Below the pieces are notes generated by a model. That model saw only the letters and a list, made by a program, of their open reading frames with translations, made no database searches and had not been told where the DNA came from. This document shows, piece after piece, positions 14,628 to 17,652 of a stretch of DNA of 64,000 nucleotides; positions within the stretch are counted from its first letter, which is position 1, and every line of letters starts with the position of its first letter. The position numbers were made by a program, and so were the translations under genes. The stretch comes from Dehalococcoidia bacterium (GTDB lineage Bacteria; Chloroflexota; Dehalococcoidia; Bin125): positions 2,565,592 through 2,629,591 of the forward strand of contig CBDHGH010000003.1 in assembly GCA_965263065.1 (NCBI GenBank), in the 5' to 3' direction.

Positions 14628-15038
14628 CTGCGGTCAGGCGGCCTGTAAGCCGGGTTCTGTTCCCCGCCTGCCGGTGAGCCGGGCGGCGGGGTGGTGGCCA
14701 TCTGTCTCGGACGACGGTTACCCGCCGCCCCTAGCGACCTACCCGAGGGCGGAATGCGGCGCTCCTTGGCCCTCCTATTTGGTCTTGCTCCGGGCGGGGC
14801 TTGCCCAGCCGGACCAGTCACCTGATCCGCTGGTGCGCTCTTACCGCACCGTTTCACCCTTACCGCCCGTCCCGCCGGTGAGGGCGGAGGAGCGGCGGTC
14901 TGTCTCTGTGGCGCTTTCCGTGGGGTCACCCCCCCTGGATGTGGATCCAGCGCCCTGCCGCAACGGAGCCCGGACTTTCCTCGGCGCGACTGATGGCAGC
15001 CACCAGCGCGACGCGACCACCCGGCCACCTGACTGCCC
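14628..15038 (-). ncRNA. rnpB: RNase P RNA (bacterial type A)
   Basis: The reverse complement contains GGAAAGUCCGGGCUCC, AGGGCAGG..., GGUAAGGGUGAAACGGUGCGGUAAGAGCGCACCAG, GGAGCAAGACCAAAUAGG and ACAGAACCCGGCUUA; P1 pairing between GUCAGGUGGCC (5') and GGCCGCCUGAC (3'); followed by an 11-bp hairpin at 14600-14626. Confidence 0.85.
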
Positions 15039-15057
15039 CCGGAGTGTATCGGCCGGG

Positions 15058-15471
15058 CTACCCGACGTCCGACAGGCGTCCGTCGAGTGCCGCGTTGGCG
15101 AGTTCGTCGGCGCGCGAGTTCTGCGCGCGGGGGACATGACGGACGCGCACGACATCGAGTCGCGACAGGAGCCGCTGCAGGCGCGCGTACAGCGGCTTGA
15201 GAGCGGCGTTCTTGACGCGGTAGCGCCCCTCGATCTGGCGCACGATGAGTTCGGAATCGAGGCGTAGCTCGAGCTCGGTCGCGCCCAACTCCAGGGCAGC
15301 CTCCACCGCGGCGATCGCGCCACGATACTCGGCGACGTTGTTCGTGTGGTGGCCGATCCGGCCCCCCAGGGCGCGCAGTTCGGCGTCCGTGGCGTCGTAG
15401 ACCACGGCGCCGAAGGCGGCGGGGCCGGGGTTGCCGCGAGAGGCGCCATCGGCGTTGGCATACATCTTCAC
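15058..15471 (-). CDS. rnhA: ribonuclease HI
   Basis: 137 aa; catalytic motifs ADGASRGNPGPA, TNNVAEY, DSELIV and NSRADELAN. Confidence 0.85.
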   Translation of the reverse strand: MKMYANADGASRGNPGPAAFGAVVYDATDAELRALGGRIGHHTNNVAEYRGAIAAVEAALELGATELELRLDSELIVRQIEGRYRVKNAALKPLYARLQRLLSRLDVVRVRHVPRAQNSRADELANAALDGRLSDVG

Positions 15472-15495
15472 GCCGGCGTCGATCGCACCGGTGGC

Positions 15496-16947
15496 TCAGA
15501 CGCGGAGGACGGTGCGGACGCCGCCCTCATCCACGATGACGCGCTCCACGACATCCCGCAGGAGCGCCTGGCGGTGCTCGAAGCTCAGTCCGTCCCAGTC
15601 GTCGCGGATGCGCGCCAACTGGCGTGCGCGGTGGCGGCCGCGTTCGCTCTCGGTGGCCTGCGCCGCGGCCCGACGGTCCAGCGCGGCGAGCTCGCCGGTG
15701 GAGTGCTGGTAGTCCGCGGTGATCTCGGCGGCGACCTCCCGCAGCCGCTCGGGTGTGTCGCGGCCAGTGGACGCGGCCGTGATGGCGTCGGAGAGGCGCC
15801 GGTCCAGGCTGCGCATGTGGCTGCGCACGCGCGCCTCGGCGACTGCCGTCTCGGCCGCGACGGCGCCGGCGTTGCCTGCGCGCAGCAGCGCGGGGCGCAC
15901 CACGCCGGTCTCGACGTCTCCCTCGGTCCCATTCGCGGCGCCCGTGAGGTGCGCCAGCACTTCCGCCTCCAAGTCCGCGGCTCGGCGCGTGTGGTACTCG
16001 CCCACCGACTGGTTGGTCCGCGCCACGTTCTGGTAGTAGCGGTAGGTGTTGTTGCCCACTGCACCGTCGCGGCGGGTCCATTGCTGCCGGCGAGTGACGC
16101 CGATCATGCGCGAGCCGCCGTCGCCGCAGTACACAAGGCCGGAGAGCAGGAAGCGGCCGGGCTGGGCTTTGGCGGCGGGGCGGCGGCGCTGCGCCGTGCG
16201 CGTCTGCACGGCGCGGAAGTCGGCCTCGCTGACGATGGCCGGGTGGTTGCCGGGTACCTTCACGCCGAAGCGCGTGTACGTGCCCACGTAGACACGGTTG
16301 CGGAGCAGATCGCGGATCGTGACCATGCTCCAGTTTCCCCCCCGGCGCGTGCGATAGCCCTGCTCGTTCAGATGCTTCGCGATCAGCCGGATACCGCGTC
16401 CCTCCGAGAGGTAGAGGTCGAAGATCATGCGCACCAACGTCGCCTCCGCCTCGACGATCTGCAAGCGCCGGTCTTCGCCCACCTGGTAGCCGTAGGGCGG
16501 CCGGCCGAGCACTTTCCCCTGGATGGCGCGCCGCCGCATGGCGTCGCGCACCCGGCGGCCGCTCGCTCCCGTCCCGTGCTCGTCCCAGATGCGGAGCAGG
16601 CGGACATCGTCCAGTGGGCCTTCGGCGATCGAGATGATTTGCGCACCGCTGGCGCTGATCTGGAAGTACGTACGGGCGGCCGCGGCCCGCTCCGGCCCCA
16701 GCCGCGAGAAGGCGGTCACGACGACAGCGATGAACCCCTTGTCCGGCGCGTCCAGATAGTCCAGCAGTTGCCGGAGGCCCGGGCGATCCGACGCGCCGGC
16801 GCCGGCGCCGGGCACGGGATCGAGGAAGGCAGCCGCGGGCTGGTAGCCGTTCGCCTCGCAGTAGCGCAGGAAGGCATCGTTCTGGGCGGCCAGCGTGCCG
16901 GCGTCGCCAGCCGGGCCGTACTCCGTCAGATAGCCGATCGCGCGCAT
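15496..16947 (-). CDS. large serine recombinase homologue (resolvase/recombinase/zinc-beta-ribbon architecture), apparently degenerate at catalytic positions
   Basis: 483 aa; N-terminal MRAIGYLTEY against the family consensus MRAIGYARVST (Arg and Ser replaced); recombinase-domain motif GRPPYGY; single-Cys remnant of the C-terminal zinc ribbon. Confidence 0.75.
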   Translation of the reverse strand: MRAIGYLTEYGPAGDAGTLAAQNDAFLRYCEANGYQPAAAFLDPVPGAGAGASDRPGLRQLLDYLDAPDKGFIAVVVTAFSRLGPERAAAARTYFQISASGAQIISIAEGPLDDVRLLRIWDEHGTGASGRRVRDAMRRRAIQGKVLGRPPYGYQVGEDRRLQIVEAEATLVRMIFDLYLSEGRGIRLIAKHLNEQGYRTRRGGNWSMVTIRDLLRNRVYVGTYTRFGVKVPGNHPAIVSEADFRAVQTRTAQRRRPAAKAQPGRFLLSGLVYCGDGGSRMIGVTRRQQWTRRDGAVGNNTYRYYQNVARTNQSVGEYHTRRAADLEAEVLAHLTGAANGTEGDVETGVVRPALLRAGNAGAVAAETAVAEARVRSHMRSLDRRLSDAITAASTGRDTPERLREVAAEITADYQHSTGELAALDRRAAAQATESERGRHRARQLARIRDDWDGLSFEHRQALLRDVVERVIVDEGGVRTVLRV

Positions 16948-16971
16948 GGCCTCTCTCCGGCGGTCACGGGC

Positions 16972-17652
16972 TCAGCGGATGTAGACGATGCAGTGGCAGG
17001 CGGGGCACTTGACGGCATCCGCGCCACGCCTGGCTCGGTTGAGGATGGTCGTGGGCAAGCTCAGACGGCAGGAGCCGCAGACTCCGCCGATGGAGGCCGC
17101 CACTGCGACGTGCTGGAGCGCGCGCTGAGAGTCGTAGACGGCGAGGTCGGCGGCGCCGAGACGGGCACGCAGGGCGTCCACGTCGGCGCGCACGCGGGCG
17201 GCCTCGGCATCGATCTCGTCGTGCTGGGCCTGAAGCCCGGCGCGACGTTCCTCCCAGACCAGGCGACTCTTCTCGCTCAATGCGATGAGGTAGTCCAGCG
17301 CCGCTTGCTCGTGCTCCTCCTCGTCGATGCGGGCCAGCAAGCGTTCCTCGTGGGCCTTGAGGCCGCGCCGCAGCGCGAAGACTTCCTCTTGCAGGTGGCG
17401 CAGCTCCTTGGCGTCGGTGGTCTCGCCGCTGTAGAGCTTGCCGTCCTCGGTGACGATCTTGGCACGGAGCGCGTCCGCCTCCGCCTCGACAGCCTTGCGC
17501 GCCAGCGTGCCCTCGTCGAGGCGCGCTCGTTGAGCCGCGATCTCGTCACTCAGCGTGCGGTGCGAGTCCGGCTCCTGGAGCTGGTCCGCCACCGCGACCA
17601 GTCGCCGCTTGATGGTGTCGAGGCGCAGATCGACCTCTTGCAGCGCGACCAT
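16972..17652 (-). CDS. DUF164/COG1579 C4 zinc-ribbon coiled-coil protein
   Basis: Start at MVALQEVDLRL; coiled-coil body and C-terminal CGSC...CPAC; the track ORF 16972..18120 is an upstream over-extension. Confidence 0.7.
   Translation of the reverse strand: MVALQEVDLRLDTIKRRLVAVADQLQEPDSHRTLSDEIAAQRARLDEGTLARKAVEAEADALRAKIVTEDGKLYSGETTDAKELRHLQEEVFALRRGLKAHEERLLARIDEEEHEQAALDYLIALSEKSRLVWEERRAGLQAQHDEIDAEAARVRADVDALRARLGAADLAVYDSQRALQHVAVAASIGGVCGSCRLSLPTTILNRARRGADAVKCPACHCIVYIR

Follow-up and report, generated by a model that had tools for sequence, protein, structure and literature searches.

On the minus strand of a 64,000-nt stretch of contig CBDHGH010000003.1 from a Dehalococcoidia bacterium (the window, in what follows) lies a gene for an exapted large serine recombinase (LSR). 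The protein, called here dLSR for dead LSR homologue, has kept the body of an LSR, and alignments indicate that it has lost the residues for phosphoryl transfer. It is not a single oddity. It belongs to a large family spanning a class or more, and Dehalococcoidia-type Chloroflexota inherit its gene vertically, in the chromosome and under purifying selection. We consider it fairly probable that dLSR is a non-catalytic DNA-binding protein which acts with DUF164, and that RNase H and RNase P RNA come from the same transcript.

Organization of the Locus

Four packed elements follow one another in the order CT398/DUF164, dLSR, type-1 RNase H, and rnpB, as a preliminary description of this DNA had read them, and each is confirmed by a Pfam or Rfam match. 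The features of the locus are:

17703..17732, minus strand: promoter-like site, TTGCCG-18 nt-TATACT, about 30-50 nt 5′ of the DUF164 start
16972..17670, minus strand: CT398/DUF164 (COG1579) gene, coding a coiled-coil hairpin and a C-terminal C4 zinc ribbon (Pfam)
15496..16947, minus strand: dLSR, catalytically degenerate LSR homologue of 483 aa (Pfam, AF2, fold matches)
16558..16947, minus strand: dLSR residues 1-130, resolvase-fold N-terminal domain without the Ser nucleophile (AF2, alignments)
15943..16557, minus strand: dLSR residues 131-335, C-terminal part of helix E, GRPPYGY linker, recombinase domain (RD), and zinc-ribbon domain (ZD) (conservation, integrase alignment)
15499..15942, minus strand: dLSR residues 336-483, helical hairpin (coiled-coil motif) and C-terminal beta tail (AF2)
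15058..15471, minus strand: stand-alone type-1 RNase H of 135-137 aa (Pfam RVT_3 2.7e-21, RNase_H 2.8e-9)
14630..15032, minus strand: rnpB, bacterial class A RNase P RNA (Rfam RF00010, 258.8 bits, model 1-367)
14599..14624, minus strand: GC-rich hairpin, perfect 11 bp with a 4-nt loop (inverted repeat I8, 100% complementary)

The intergenic gaps are 24 nt (DUF164/dLSR), 24 nt (dLSR/RNase H), and 25 nt (RNase H/rnpB); the preliminary description had the first two right and put the last at about 20 nt. To one side lie yceD, rpmF, fabD, and nusB, to the other murE, and among the adjacent genes there is indeed no Nif3.

The promoter-like site is the sole sigma-70-like site found in positions 14300-18400 by a promoter scan, which is a weak tool at 70% GC. 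When upstream regions are compared, orthologous loci show both the −35 and the −10 element at this place too, among them 'ATTGC...TTCGTATACT' and 'TTGGCA...CATAGACT', and the site 5′ of DUF164 is likely the operon promoter. At the other end, the hairpin I8 begins 5 nt past the rnpB 3′ end and is a candidate operon terminator or 3′-processing signal; it is missing from the terminator scan because it has no T tract. One conserved promoter-like site upstream, short gaps, and a hairpin past rnpB make up the sequence-based evidence for an operon. With the promoter-like site only 5′ of DUF164 and the hairpin after rnpB, the sequence agrees with the earlier idea of a co-expressed unit and does not prove it.

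Architecture of dLSR

Pfam recognizes in dLSR the Recombinase domain (PF07508, 6.4e-23, residues 167-254), Resolvase (3.2e-10), and Zn_ribbon_recom (PF13408, 2e-7), the three models against which a search had been proposed. RD occupies residues 161-262 and ZD residues 263-335. In the AF2 model (pLDDT 86), the coiled-coil helices span residues 360-393 and 399-453, and beta strands lie within 272-322. The best fold matches to this model are the full-length integrases of SPbeta, PhiC31, Bxb1, and LI in LSR-DNA complexes (E from 6e-22 to 5e-13). Residues 131-335 align with the DNA-binding domains of the solved SPbeta and A118 integrases, and the family profile matches the catalytic domains of gamma-delta resolvase, TP901-1, and TnpX (E 0.002-0.01).

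The overall LSR layout noted earlier is therefore upheld by Pfam domains, the AF2 fold, and the alignment to the SPbeta and A118 integrases. The LSR body is whole, with the resolvase-fold N-domain, helix E, GRPPYGY linker, RD, ZD, and coiled-coil hairpin all in place. Both domain order and fold are the same as in LSRs such as SPbeta SprA, the Listeria A118/LI integrase, PhiC31, and Bxb1, and the GRPPYGY linker and the W...L.N..Y.G motif of the recombinase domain have been kept.

Loss of Catalytic Residues and Zinc Ligands

Unlike LSRs, dLSR has neither the Ser nucleophile nor Arg8, Asp67, and Arg71, and Arg68 is not conserved across the family. The Pfam Resolvase match begins only at profile position 15. 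In the protein of the window, YLTEY stands at the place of Y-x-R-x-S and FSRLGPE at the D67/R68/R71 cluster, so that in gamma-delta numbering R8, S10, D67, and R71 are replaced by T, Y, S, and P, respectively. R68 has been kept there by chance, its position being variable across 191 members.

The same holds for the family. Over 191 distinct members the S10 position is taken by P (55), C (21), Y (18), S (18), A (14), and others, the D67 position mainly by E (51), A (41), and D (20), and the R71 position mostly by A (44), G (30), and P (26), with R in 11. When the family profile is set against gamma-delta resolvase, LDRLGRD falls opposite the non-conserved 's-l-e-s-l-G-a-d'. R8 is variable as well. 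The N-domain retains Y6 (nearly invariant), Q22, D43, and R55 (the R45 equivalent). Of the 150 best cluster representatives almost none has YxRxS, and scores must fall to about 120 bits before canonical LSRs are met. The preliminary description had regarded the catalytic Arg/Ser pair and the Asp-Arg...Arg cluster as replaced, and the alignment bears this out for the window protein, where R68 alone is kept, and for the 191 members. A different register restoring Ser and Arg was looked for, and none was found.

The zinc ribbon of the window protein has only C274 left of four Cys, as reported before, and in this the lineage, lacking three zinc ligands, differs from LSRs; all four are kept in 103 of 191 relatives. 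Loss of three of the four ligands in half of the family could mean altered DNA binding.

Conservation is concentrated elsewhere. Columns at least 95% identical make up 30-38% of the helix-E end/linker, RD, and ZD, 14% of the N-domain, and 1% of the coiled coil, and the helix-E/linker, RD, and ZD regions are basic (pI 9.9-11.5). The choice between DNA and RNA binding had been left open earlier; the best conserved and most basic modules of dLSR are the ones that bind dsDNA in LSRs. Such high conservation suggests that dLSR may recognize one conserved target.

Distribution and Selection

The dLSR family includes more than 1000 proteins, with relatives in 298 species genomes, all of them Chloroflexota/Dehalococcoidia MAGs. 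We inspected 89 loci with relatives down to 28% identity. The ORF was intact and of full length in every one (89/89), and the same synteny was retained down to 28% identity. The dN/dS of dLSR is 0.12-0.30 versus 0.14-0.24 for murE, and each domain stays below 0.28. The N-terminal domain has 0.14-0.19 and is therefore still under selection.

No members were found on viral contigs (IMG/VR) or in phage records, and neither att-like flanking repeats nor mobile cargo was seen at the locus. A prophage boundary with att repeats and phage genes, which would have accounted for an integrase at this place, was looked for and is absent, the flanks being housekeeping genes. The view of dLSR as a domesticated, non-catalytic recombinase-derived protein, put forward from the single sequence, is now strongly supported by the fixed synteny (89/89), the murE-like selection, the absence of viral members, and the housekeeping setting. 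The gene order recurs in related genomes, with DUF164-dLSR in 89/89 loci, same-strand rnpB in 74/89, and a variable RNase H. We found no description of the dLSR family in the literature, in agreement with the earlier impression that this is not a described system.

Partner Genes

All loci inspected (89/89) have a DUF164 homologue immediately 5′ of the dLSR gene, the median gap being 4 nt. In the window its Pfam matches are CT398_CC (1.8e-9, above cut-off) and Zn_ribbon_9 (3.2e-6; 27.6 bits, just below the 29.1 cut-off), and the C-terminal zinc ribbon reads ...CGSC...CPAC.... Translation from GTG 17670 gives 232 aa, and from ATG 17652 it gives 226 aa; the former start is likelier because DUF164 homologues have 231-232 aa, and little hangs on the difference.

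Several members of this family have been linked to RNA polymerase (RNAP). RNAP beta and DNA were both recovered along with MSMEG_4306 (PMC7092591). In an AF3 model the M. leprae homologue lies on the beta′ shelf/jaw, and its coiled coil extends to the sigma site (bioRxiv 10.64898/2026.07.15.738315). HP0958 and CT398 bind sigma-54 (PMC3372290). These observations come from Actinobacteria, Chlamydia, and Helicobacter, not Chloroflexota, and are partly structure prediction. An RNA-polymerase-associated partner points to a transcription-linked role for dLSR.

Among solved structures, the RNase H domain of M. tuberculosis Rv2228c (3HST, 1.7e-32) is the closest relative of this enzyme. When the two are aligned, the motifs ADGxSRGNPG, NNVAEY, DS, and AD are found, and the four acidic (DEDD) catalytic residues appear to be retained. 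This component is replaceable: type-2 RNase H occupies the type-1 slot in 8 loci, and some clades have no RNase H.

The rnpB match covers the full length of the model, well above the RF00010 gathering threshold of 100 bits. The gene lies downstream on the same strand in 74 of the 89 loci. According to nhmmer the gap before it is 22-194 nt in 51 loci, and in four distant loci nhmmer overestimates the gap, which is 30-70 nt by Rfam. In roughly 10 loci rnpB lies >250 nt downstream, after allowing for underestimated rnpB starts and an RNase HII-type gene; in 9 loci it was not found within the fetched locus. A transcript shared with rnpB is thus not general in the family. The invariant partners of dLSR are DUF164 and, less strictly, rnpB, while RNase H is variable.

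Proposed Function and Alternatives

What could an integrase without cutting residues do, when it is inherited in the chromosome behind a zinc-ribbon gene of RNAP type? Such a combination suggests that it is probably a DNA-binding helper rather than a recombinase, and given the literature on DUF164/CT398 and RNA polymerase, an exapted non-catalytic DNA-binding protein working with DUF164 is the best reading. dLSR would no longer cut or rejoin DNA. Since selection has kept the dsDNA-binding apparatus (helix-E end and linker, RD, and ZD), it probably binds DNA, as a dimer and at sites perhaps conserved across the class. Judging from gene adjacency, it probably acts with the translationally coupled DUF164 protein, and the pair may form a transcription-linked DNA-binding module, possibly joined via both coiled-coil hairpins, in which the dead integrase would recognize the DNA and DUF164 would contact the polymerase. 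One transcript, started at the single promoter 5′ of DUF164, would probably yield both RNase H, with its activity of removing RNA:DNA hybrids, and RNase P RNA, and rnpB would be set free from it by processing. A link to RNase H activity is favored by the eight loci in which a type-2 enzyme fills the type-1 slot.

A more specific version is tentative and on balance unlikely. Here dLSR would be the sequence-specific DNA recognition part of an undescribed transcription-coupled module, acting for RNAP-bound DUF164, and the pair would send RNase H to RNA:DNA hybrids arising from transcription and/or control how much of the co-transcribed RNase P RNA is made. If this is true, the long-enigmatic COG1579 proteins would have a definite partner and a role.

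Among the alternatives, a tie of dLSR to the RNase P RNA survives best, and we regard it as rather unlikely. The target of dLSR would be either the rnpB gene, as a fossil attB of the ancestral element, or the RNA itself, and dLSR would thereby govern how rnpB is transcribed, processed, or assembled; DUF164 and RNase H would be bystanders of an older neighborhood. Stable-RNA genes are common integration targets, and DNA-binding modules conserved across the class are what a highly conserved target such as rnpB would lead one to expect. Also, rnpB directly follows dLSR (21-70 nt) in the RNase H-less loci L005, L081, L082, L085, L086, L088, and L089, in addition to its frequent same-strand position downstream (74/89). 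However, rnpB is displaced or missing at a minority of loci (e.g., L087), a dyad site near rnpB was looked for without success, and LSRs are not known to bind RNA. DUF164-rnhA-rnpB neighborhoods also occur without the recombinase in other phyla (PMC3372290), so that the rnpB linkage may predate the insertion.

It is unlikely that dLSR is a stand-alone transcription factor, a resolvase-like dimer repressing its own operon and adjacent to DUF164 by operon history only. Tn3-type resolvases, which repress tnpR/tnpA, would be the model, and the retained DNA-binding modules and dimerization helix agree with it, as does the conserved promoter-like site 5′ of the operon. But adjacency in 89/89 loci, at a median gap of 4 nt and over very deep divergence, is stronger than unrelated genes would give. 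The inverted-repeat and upstream-region comparisons gave promoter elements only; no binding site was seen in them, which counts against the preferred reading as well, and no palindromic operator around the promoter.

Very unlikely is a role as a decoy against mobile elements, in which dLSR would occupy attB-like sites of the chromosome or poison incoming active LSRs via mixed oligomers and so keep LSR-carrying elements from integrating. Serine recombinases have reportedly been discussed for mobile islands of Dehalococcoides, and purifying selection still acts on the N-domain and coiled coil, which carry the surfaces for oligomerization and synapsis. Defense genes, however, usually turn over fast and sit in variable islands, whereas dLSR is fixed in a housekeeping operon and evolves as slowly as murE.

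That dLSR is still an active recombinase with a non-canonical nucleophile or register seems highly improbable. The near invariance of Y6, the kept R55 and D43, and the Ser that happens to occupy the S10 position in 18/191 members could be read in this way, but Y6 aside no Ser, Thr, or Tyr of the N-domain is conserved, and R8, D67, R68, and R71 are all variable. Flanking repeats and mobile cargo were not seen at the locus, and the synteny is static across the class. Finally, LSR genes normally belong to mobile elements, but a leftover integrase in decay, from a prophage or an integrative element, has a negligible chance in view of the housekeeping flanks and the lack of viral or phage members, and is refuted by conservation (intact ORF in 89/89, dN/dS 0.12-0.30).

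Comparison with Known Systems

The preferred reading, a non-catalytic DNA-binding protein working with DUF164, can be set beside several known systems. Unlike LSRs in general, dLSR lies off mobile elements, without att-like repeats and in a fixed chromosomal synteny. Serine recombinases in host use are known, namely XisF of Anabaena, SpoIVCA, CcrA/B/C, and the Hin invertases. XisF is also the best NCBIfam match to dLSR (75.7 bits, far under the 375-bit cut-off). Host recombinases of this type recombine an excisable or invertible segment, whereas the dLSR family has neither the chemistry nor the segment. The review of exaptation of prokaryotic mobile elements lists only active serine recombinases (PMC8987985).

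In the Nif3-DUF164(COG1579)-RNase H neighborhood of Actinobacteria and other phyla, DUF164 and rnhA lie together, as they do here; an example is presumably Rv2230c-Rv2229c-Rv2228c. The present locus differs from it in having no adjacent Nif3, in an RNase H that is not fused to acid phosphatase, and in the dead LSR gene inserted between DUF164 and rnhA/rnpB. In some phyla rnpB is found near DUF164-rnhA (PMC3372290 Fig. 3; PMC8469502).

The evolutionary logic is that of TldR: catalysis is lost from an enzyme of mobile elements, recognition of the target stays, and a host factor with vertical inheritance results. TldR, from TnpB, is a nuclease-dead derivative of a transposon protein reused as a regulator. 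It is RNA-guided; the superfamily of dLSR is unrelated, and DNA recognition would go through protein domains.

Serine integrases are known as mobile-element enzymes or as still-active host tools (Hin, XisF, SpoIVCA). Retention of a dead one as a conserved gene of the chromosome throughout a large class would be a form of exaptation new to the superfamily. If dLSR has one conserved target, it would be a natural case of an LSR scaffold serving DNA recognition alone, of interest for the engineering of integrase specificity. dLSR is also a concrete partner candidate for the widespread and functionally obscure CT398/DUF164 (COG1579) proteins, and the family bears on the recurrent DUF164-RNase H-rnpB neighborhood.

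Organization of the locus

The preliminary description placed here a minus-strand block consisting of DUF164, a catalytically degenerate large serine recombinase (LSR) homologue (dLSR), an RNase H gene and rnpB. All four elements are present, with matches in Pfam or Rfam:

17732-17703, minus strand: promoter-like site TTGCCG-18-TATACT, upstream of DUF164
16972 (end) to 17670 (probable start, GTG), minus strand: CT398/DUF164 gene; Pfam CT398_CC 1.8e-9, Zn_ribbon_9 3.2e-6
15496-16947, minus strand: dLSR reading frame, 483 aa; Pfam Recombinase 6.4e-23, Resolvase 3.2e-10, Zn_ribbon_recom 2e-7
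15058-15471, minus strand: type-1 RNase H gene, 135-137 aa
14630-15032, minus strand: rnpB, full-length class A RNase P RNA; RF00010, 258.8 bits
14599-14624, minus strand: perfect 11-bp hairpin past rnpB

The successive gaps between these genes are 24, 24 and 25 nt, and the GC content of the genome is 70%. DUF164 had been given an ATG start at 17652; GTG 17670 is likelier and probably correct, as it yields 232 aa and nearly all close homologues are that long. Both flanks are housekeeping, with the divergent yceD, rpmF, fabD and nusB upstream and murE downstream. An ORF of 457 aa without Pfam match at E≤0.01 adjoins murE downstream (11550-12923, minus strand).

The promoter-like site is the only one in 14300-18400, and orthologous loci share its -35 and -10 elements. 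A single transcript from which rnpB is processed would fit this lone site. A 16-nt inverted repeat at 15475-15525 (81% complementary, 19-nt spacer) flanks the dLSR stop codon close before the rnhA start, and as an RNA hairpin it could influence rnhA translation.

Architecture and catalytic positions of dLSR

The architecture of dLSR is that of an LSR. The protein can be aligned to the solved SPbeta and Listeria A118 integrases across helix E, the recombinase domain and the zinc-ribbon domain; its top NCBIfam matches, XisF and CcrA/B/C, all lie far under their cut-offs. An AlphaFold2 model built from 87 family sequences (mean pLDDT 86) shows every LSR module: the alpha/beta N-domain, helix E, the helical recombinase domain, the beta-rich zinc-ribbon domain, a long helical hairpin (residues 360-393 and 399-453) and a C-terminal beta tail. 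The best Foldseek matches of this model are full-length LSR-DNA complexes (SPbeta 6e-22, PhiC31 1e-16, Bxb1 9e-16, LI integrase 4KIS 1e-15).

The catalytic positions tell another story. The Pfam Resolvase alignment begins only at profile position 15. When a profile of 30 family N-domains was aligned to gamma-delta resolvase, the LDRLGRD catalytic cluster fell opposite a segment without conservation apart from Leu and Gly.

Residues at the catalytic positions (gamma-delta resolvase numbering) in 191 distinct family members, most frequent first
R8: R 87, S 84, T 16
S10: P 55, C 21, Y 18, S 18, A 14, others
D67: E 51, A 41, D 20, others
R68: R 41, H 38, G 36, others
R71: A 44, G 30, P 26, others, among them R 11

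The second-shell residues Y6, Q22, D/E43, R55 and G57 persist, which is consistent with the fold being retained. Canonical LSRs from the same search, aligned directly, differ from the dLSR family in carrying Y-x-R-V-S-T and x-D-R-x-x-R; the gamma-delta resolvase row of this alignment agrees with the PDB alignment. An alternative start or register that would restore Ser and Arg was sought in the family alignments and is ruled out: the N-terminal MRAIGY beta strand pairs with canonical MRxxxY, and the residues that follow differ. The loss of catalytic residues, first read from a single sequence, therefore stands.

Only one cysteine had been noticed where four zinc ligands are expected, and C274 is indeed the sole ligand left in the window protein. 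All four are present in 103 of the 191 relatives, while 88, the window protein included, have the first alone. Since more than half of the family still has the complete set, the loss is secondary and lineage-specific. In the zinc-ribbon domain (residues 263-335, window 15943-16161) the sequence around the Cys sites, RMIGVTRRQ...YRYYQ...RTNQS, is almost invariant in the 191 relatives, so in the half with a single Cys the domain may fold without zinc.

Extent of the family and vertical inheritance

A word-indexed protein search with dLSR gave 1045 matches. The best 120 of these are mostly full-length with 47-98% identity, and the named ones among them are all Chloroflexota/Dehalococcoidia MAG proteins labelled "recombinase family protein". 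A second search, seeded with the distant member P0169 (37% identity), gave another 967 matches, and its few named ones are again Chloroflexi. An exhaustive comparison with the representatives of 50%-identity clusters yielded 136 clusters at E≤1e-30, whose scores taper off gradually from 555 bits to about 120. Y-x-R-x-S is missing from nearly all of the best 150 representatives, and canonical LSRs (e.g., P0253, P0263, P0267) appear only at the foot of that list. Two strict peptide patterns matched a relative in 298 stretches of GTDB species-representative genomes, from which 80 loci were retained. Family records bear only Chloroflexota, Dehalococcoidia or "Chloroflexia" MAG names; all genomes with dLSR are MAGs, with no cultured species among the matches listed.

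A search of 2.9 million viral contigs (IMG/VR) brought up no family member, and phage records returned only canonical integrases, about 25% identical across two thirds of the query. Against six orthologues, dN/dS is 0.12-0.30 for dLSR and 0.14-0.24 for murE; every dLSR domain is constrained, even the dead N-domain (0.14-0.19). Conservation across the family, dN/dS and absence from viral and phage records, together with the housekeeping flanks, exclude a prophage remnant or pseudogene, and the same evidence disposes of the integrase of a prophage ending here. The gene encodes a dead LSR, vertically inherited and fixed beside DUF164. With its dead residues, purifying dN/dS and vertical inheritance, it is very probably an exapted non-catalytic LSR, much as the domesticated recombinase of the preliminary description.

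How does this protein compare with known recombinases? It shares the architecture of LSRs but has neither the catalytic residues nor the mobile-element setting that define functional ones; both were looked for in dLSR. Host-recruited serine recombinases known so far stay active, and a review of prokaryotic exaptations names only active ones (PMC8987985), whereas dLSR is an exaptation of a mobile-element enzyme with catalysis lost. In the literature searched, which covers subscription journals thinly, neither an inactive LSR family nor a DUF164-dLSR operon was found described. Large and fixed since ancient times, the family provides a way into the obscure COG1579 proteins.

Conservation of the neighbourhood

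We inspected 89 loci, the 80 retained ones plus nine of distant members with 28-41% identity (P0122, P0169, P0160, P0226, P0265, P0332, P0358, P0251, P0212). The gene order recurs in these genomes: a CT398/DUF164 gene lies immediately 5' of the dLSR gene in all 89, with a median stop-to-start gap of 4 nt, and rnpB follows downstream on the same strand in 74. A search with the DUF164 protein, aimed at the state before insertion, gave only 33 matches because this protein diverges fast.

A type-1 RNase H gene comes next in about 70 of the first 80 loci. Its slot is taken in eight (L043, L046, L055, L057, L058, L065, L069, L073) by a gene of about 320 aa (315-325 aa), at about 7400-8390 of each locus, between the dLSR gene and rnpB. 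In the four of the eight checked with Pfam it has an RNase HII-family domain (1e-29 to 1e-31) and an N-terminal extension of about 110 aa, as in RNase HIII. One type of RNase H has here been exchanged in place for a non-orthologous one, which suggests that RNase H activity, not one particular protein, is linked to the operon. In locus L005 and in most of the distant clades the RNase H gene is missing and rnpB lies 21-70 nt after the dead-LSR gene.

By the nhmmer estimate no more than 250 nt separate the last protein gene from the start of rnpB in 51 loci. Four more (L081, L086, L088, L089) join this class once Rfam coordinates replace the nhmmer start, and a further six if the RNase HII-type gene is counted as last, so that after both corrections rnpB is close behind in about 61 of the 89.

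Locus L087 departs from the tight arrangement, being the one in which DUF164 and the dead-LSR gene are about 250 nt apart (3752-4001); in the 9.3 kb retrieved for it, no rnpB scores above the Rfam threshold. In L086 (5841-9320, on a Chloroflexota contig of 5.45 Mb) a tRNA gene lies after rnpB, and beyond it come a fragment of a tyrosine integrase (Phage_integrase, 100 aa) and two genes for DDE transposases; this mobile DNA adjoins the rnpB-tRNA pair just beyond the conserved DUF164-dLSR-rnpB block. L043 and L046 are two contigs of MAG MFD02416.bin.1.78 with near-identical DUF164-dLSR-RNase HII-rnpB blocks, probably strain variants or an assembly duplicate and not true paralogues.

Probable DNA binding and the proposed DUF164 partner

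Conservation by region (share of columns ≥95% identical in the 191-sequence alignment) and pI of the window protein
Zinc-ribbon domain: 38%, pI 9.9
Helix-E end and GRPPYGY linker: 33%, pI 11.5
Recombinase domain: 30%, pI 11.4
N-domain: 14%, pI 4.6
Coiled coil: 1%, pI 6.4

In LSR-DNA structures the DNA is held by the helix-E end and linker, the recombinase domain and the zinc-ribbon domain (A118/LI integrase 4KIS; gamma-delta resolvase 1GDT), and both 4KIS and 1GDT are among the dLSR matches. As the best-conserved regions of dLSR are these same modules, sequence- or shape-specific DNA binding is the simplest inference for the selected function.

Sigma-54 is bound by the DUF164 proteins HP0958 and CT398 (PMC3372290). 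In M. smegmatis, a pull-down of RNA polymerase beta recovered MSMEG_4306, and DNA co-purified with this protein (PMC7092591); the M. leprae homologue is predicted on the beta' shelf/jaw, its coiled coil reaching the sigma-binding site (2026 preprint, 10.64898/2026.07.15.738315). Other phyla are already known to have DUF164 beside rnhA or rnpB, and the COG1579-Nif3 link too is on record there (PMC3372290; PMC8469502), so the RNase H-DUF164-Nif3 association previously called established holds.

We therefore favour, as the rather more probable reading, a model in which dLSR would bind DNA as a dimer without cutting; its partner would be the RNAP-associated, translationally coupled DUF164 protein, perhaps contacted through both coiled-coil hairpins. 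The two would form a transcription-linked DNA-binding module, and their promoter would also drive RNase H and RNase P RNA. That the protein serves mainly rnpB, the usual last gene of the block, is unlikely, and so, a little more, is a stand-alone regulator, given that DUF164 precedes dLSR in every locus. An anti-integration decoy appears improbable; a cryptically active enzyme would be very surprising, and a decaying remnant under this degree of constraint is scarcely credible.

For the proposed DNA-binding partner of DUF164, the target site may be conserved across the class. No att- or operator-like dyad was detected in 14400-18000 or upstream of 79 loci, in a scan that a degenerate 40-50 bp site could escape and that yielded only GC-rich chance palindromes, promoter hexamers and the post-rnpB hairpin. 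In locus L007 the yceD-DUF164 intergenic region contains about four copies of the short tandem repeat GTGGTGCTTGCG, some 130 nt ahead of the DUF164 start codon; the window lacks this repeat.
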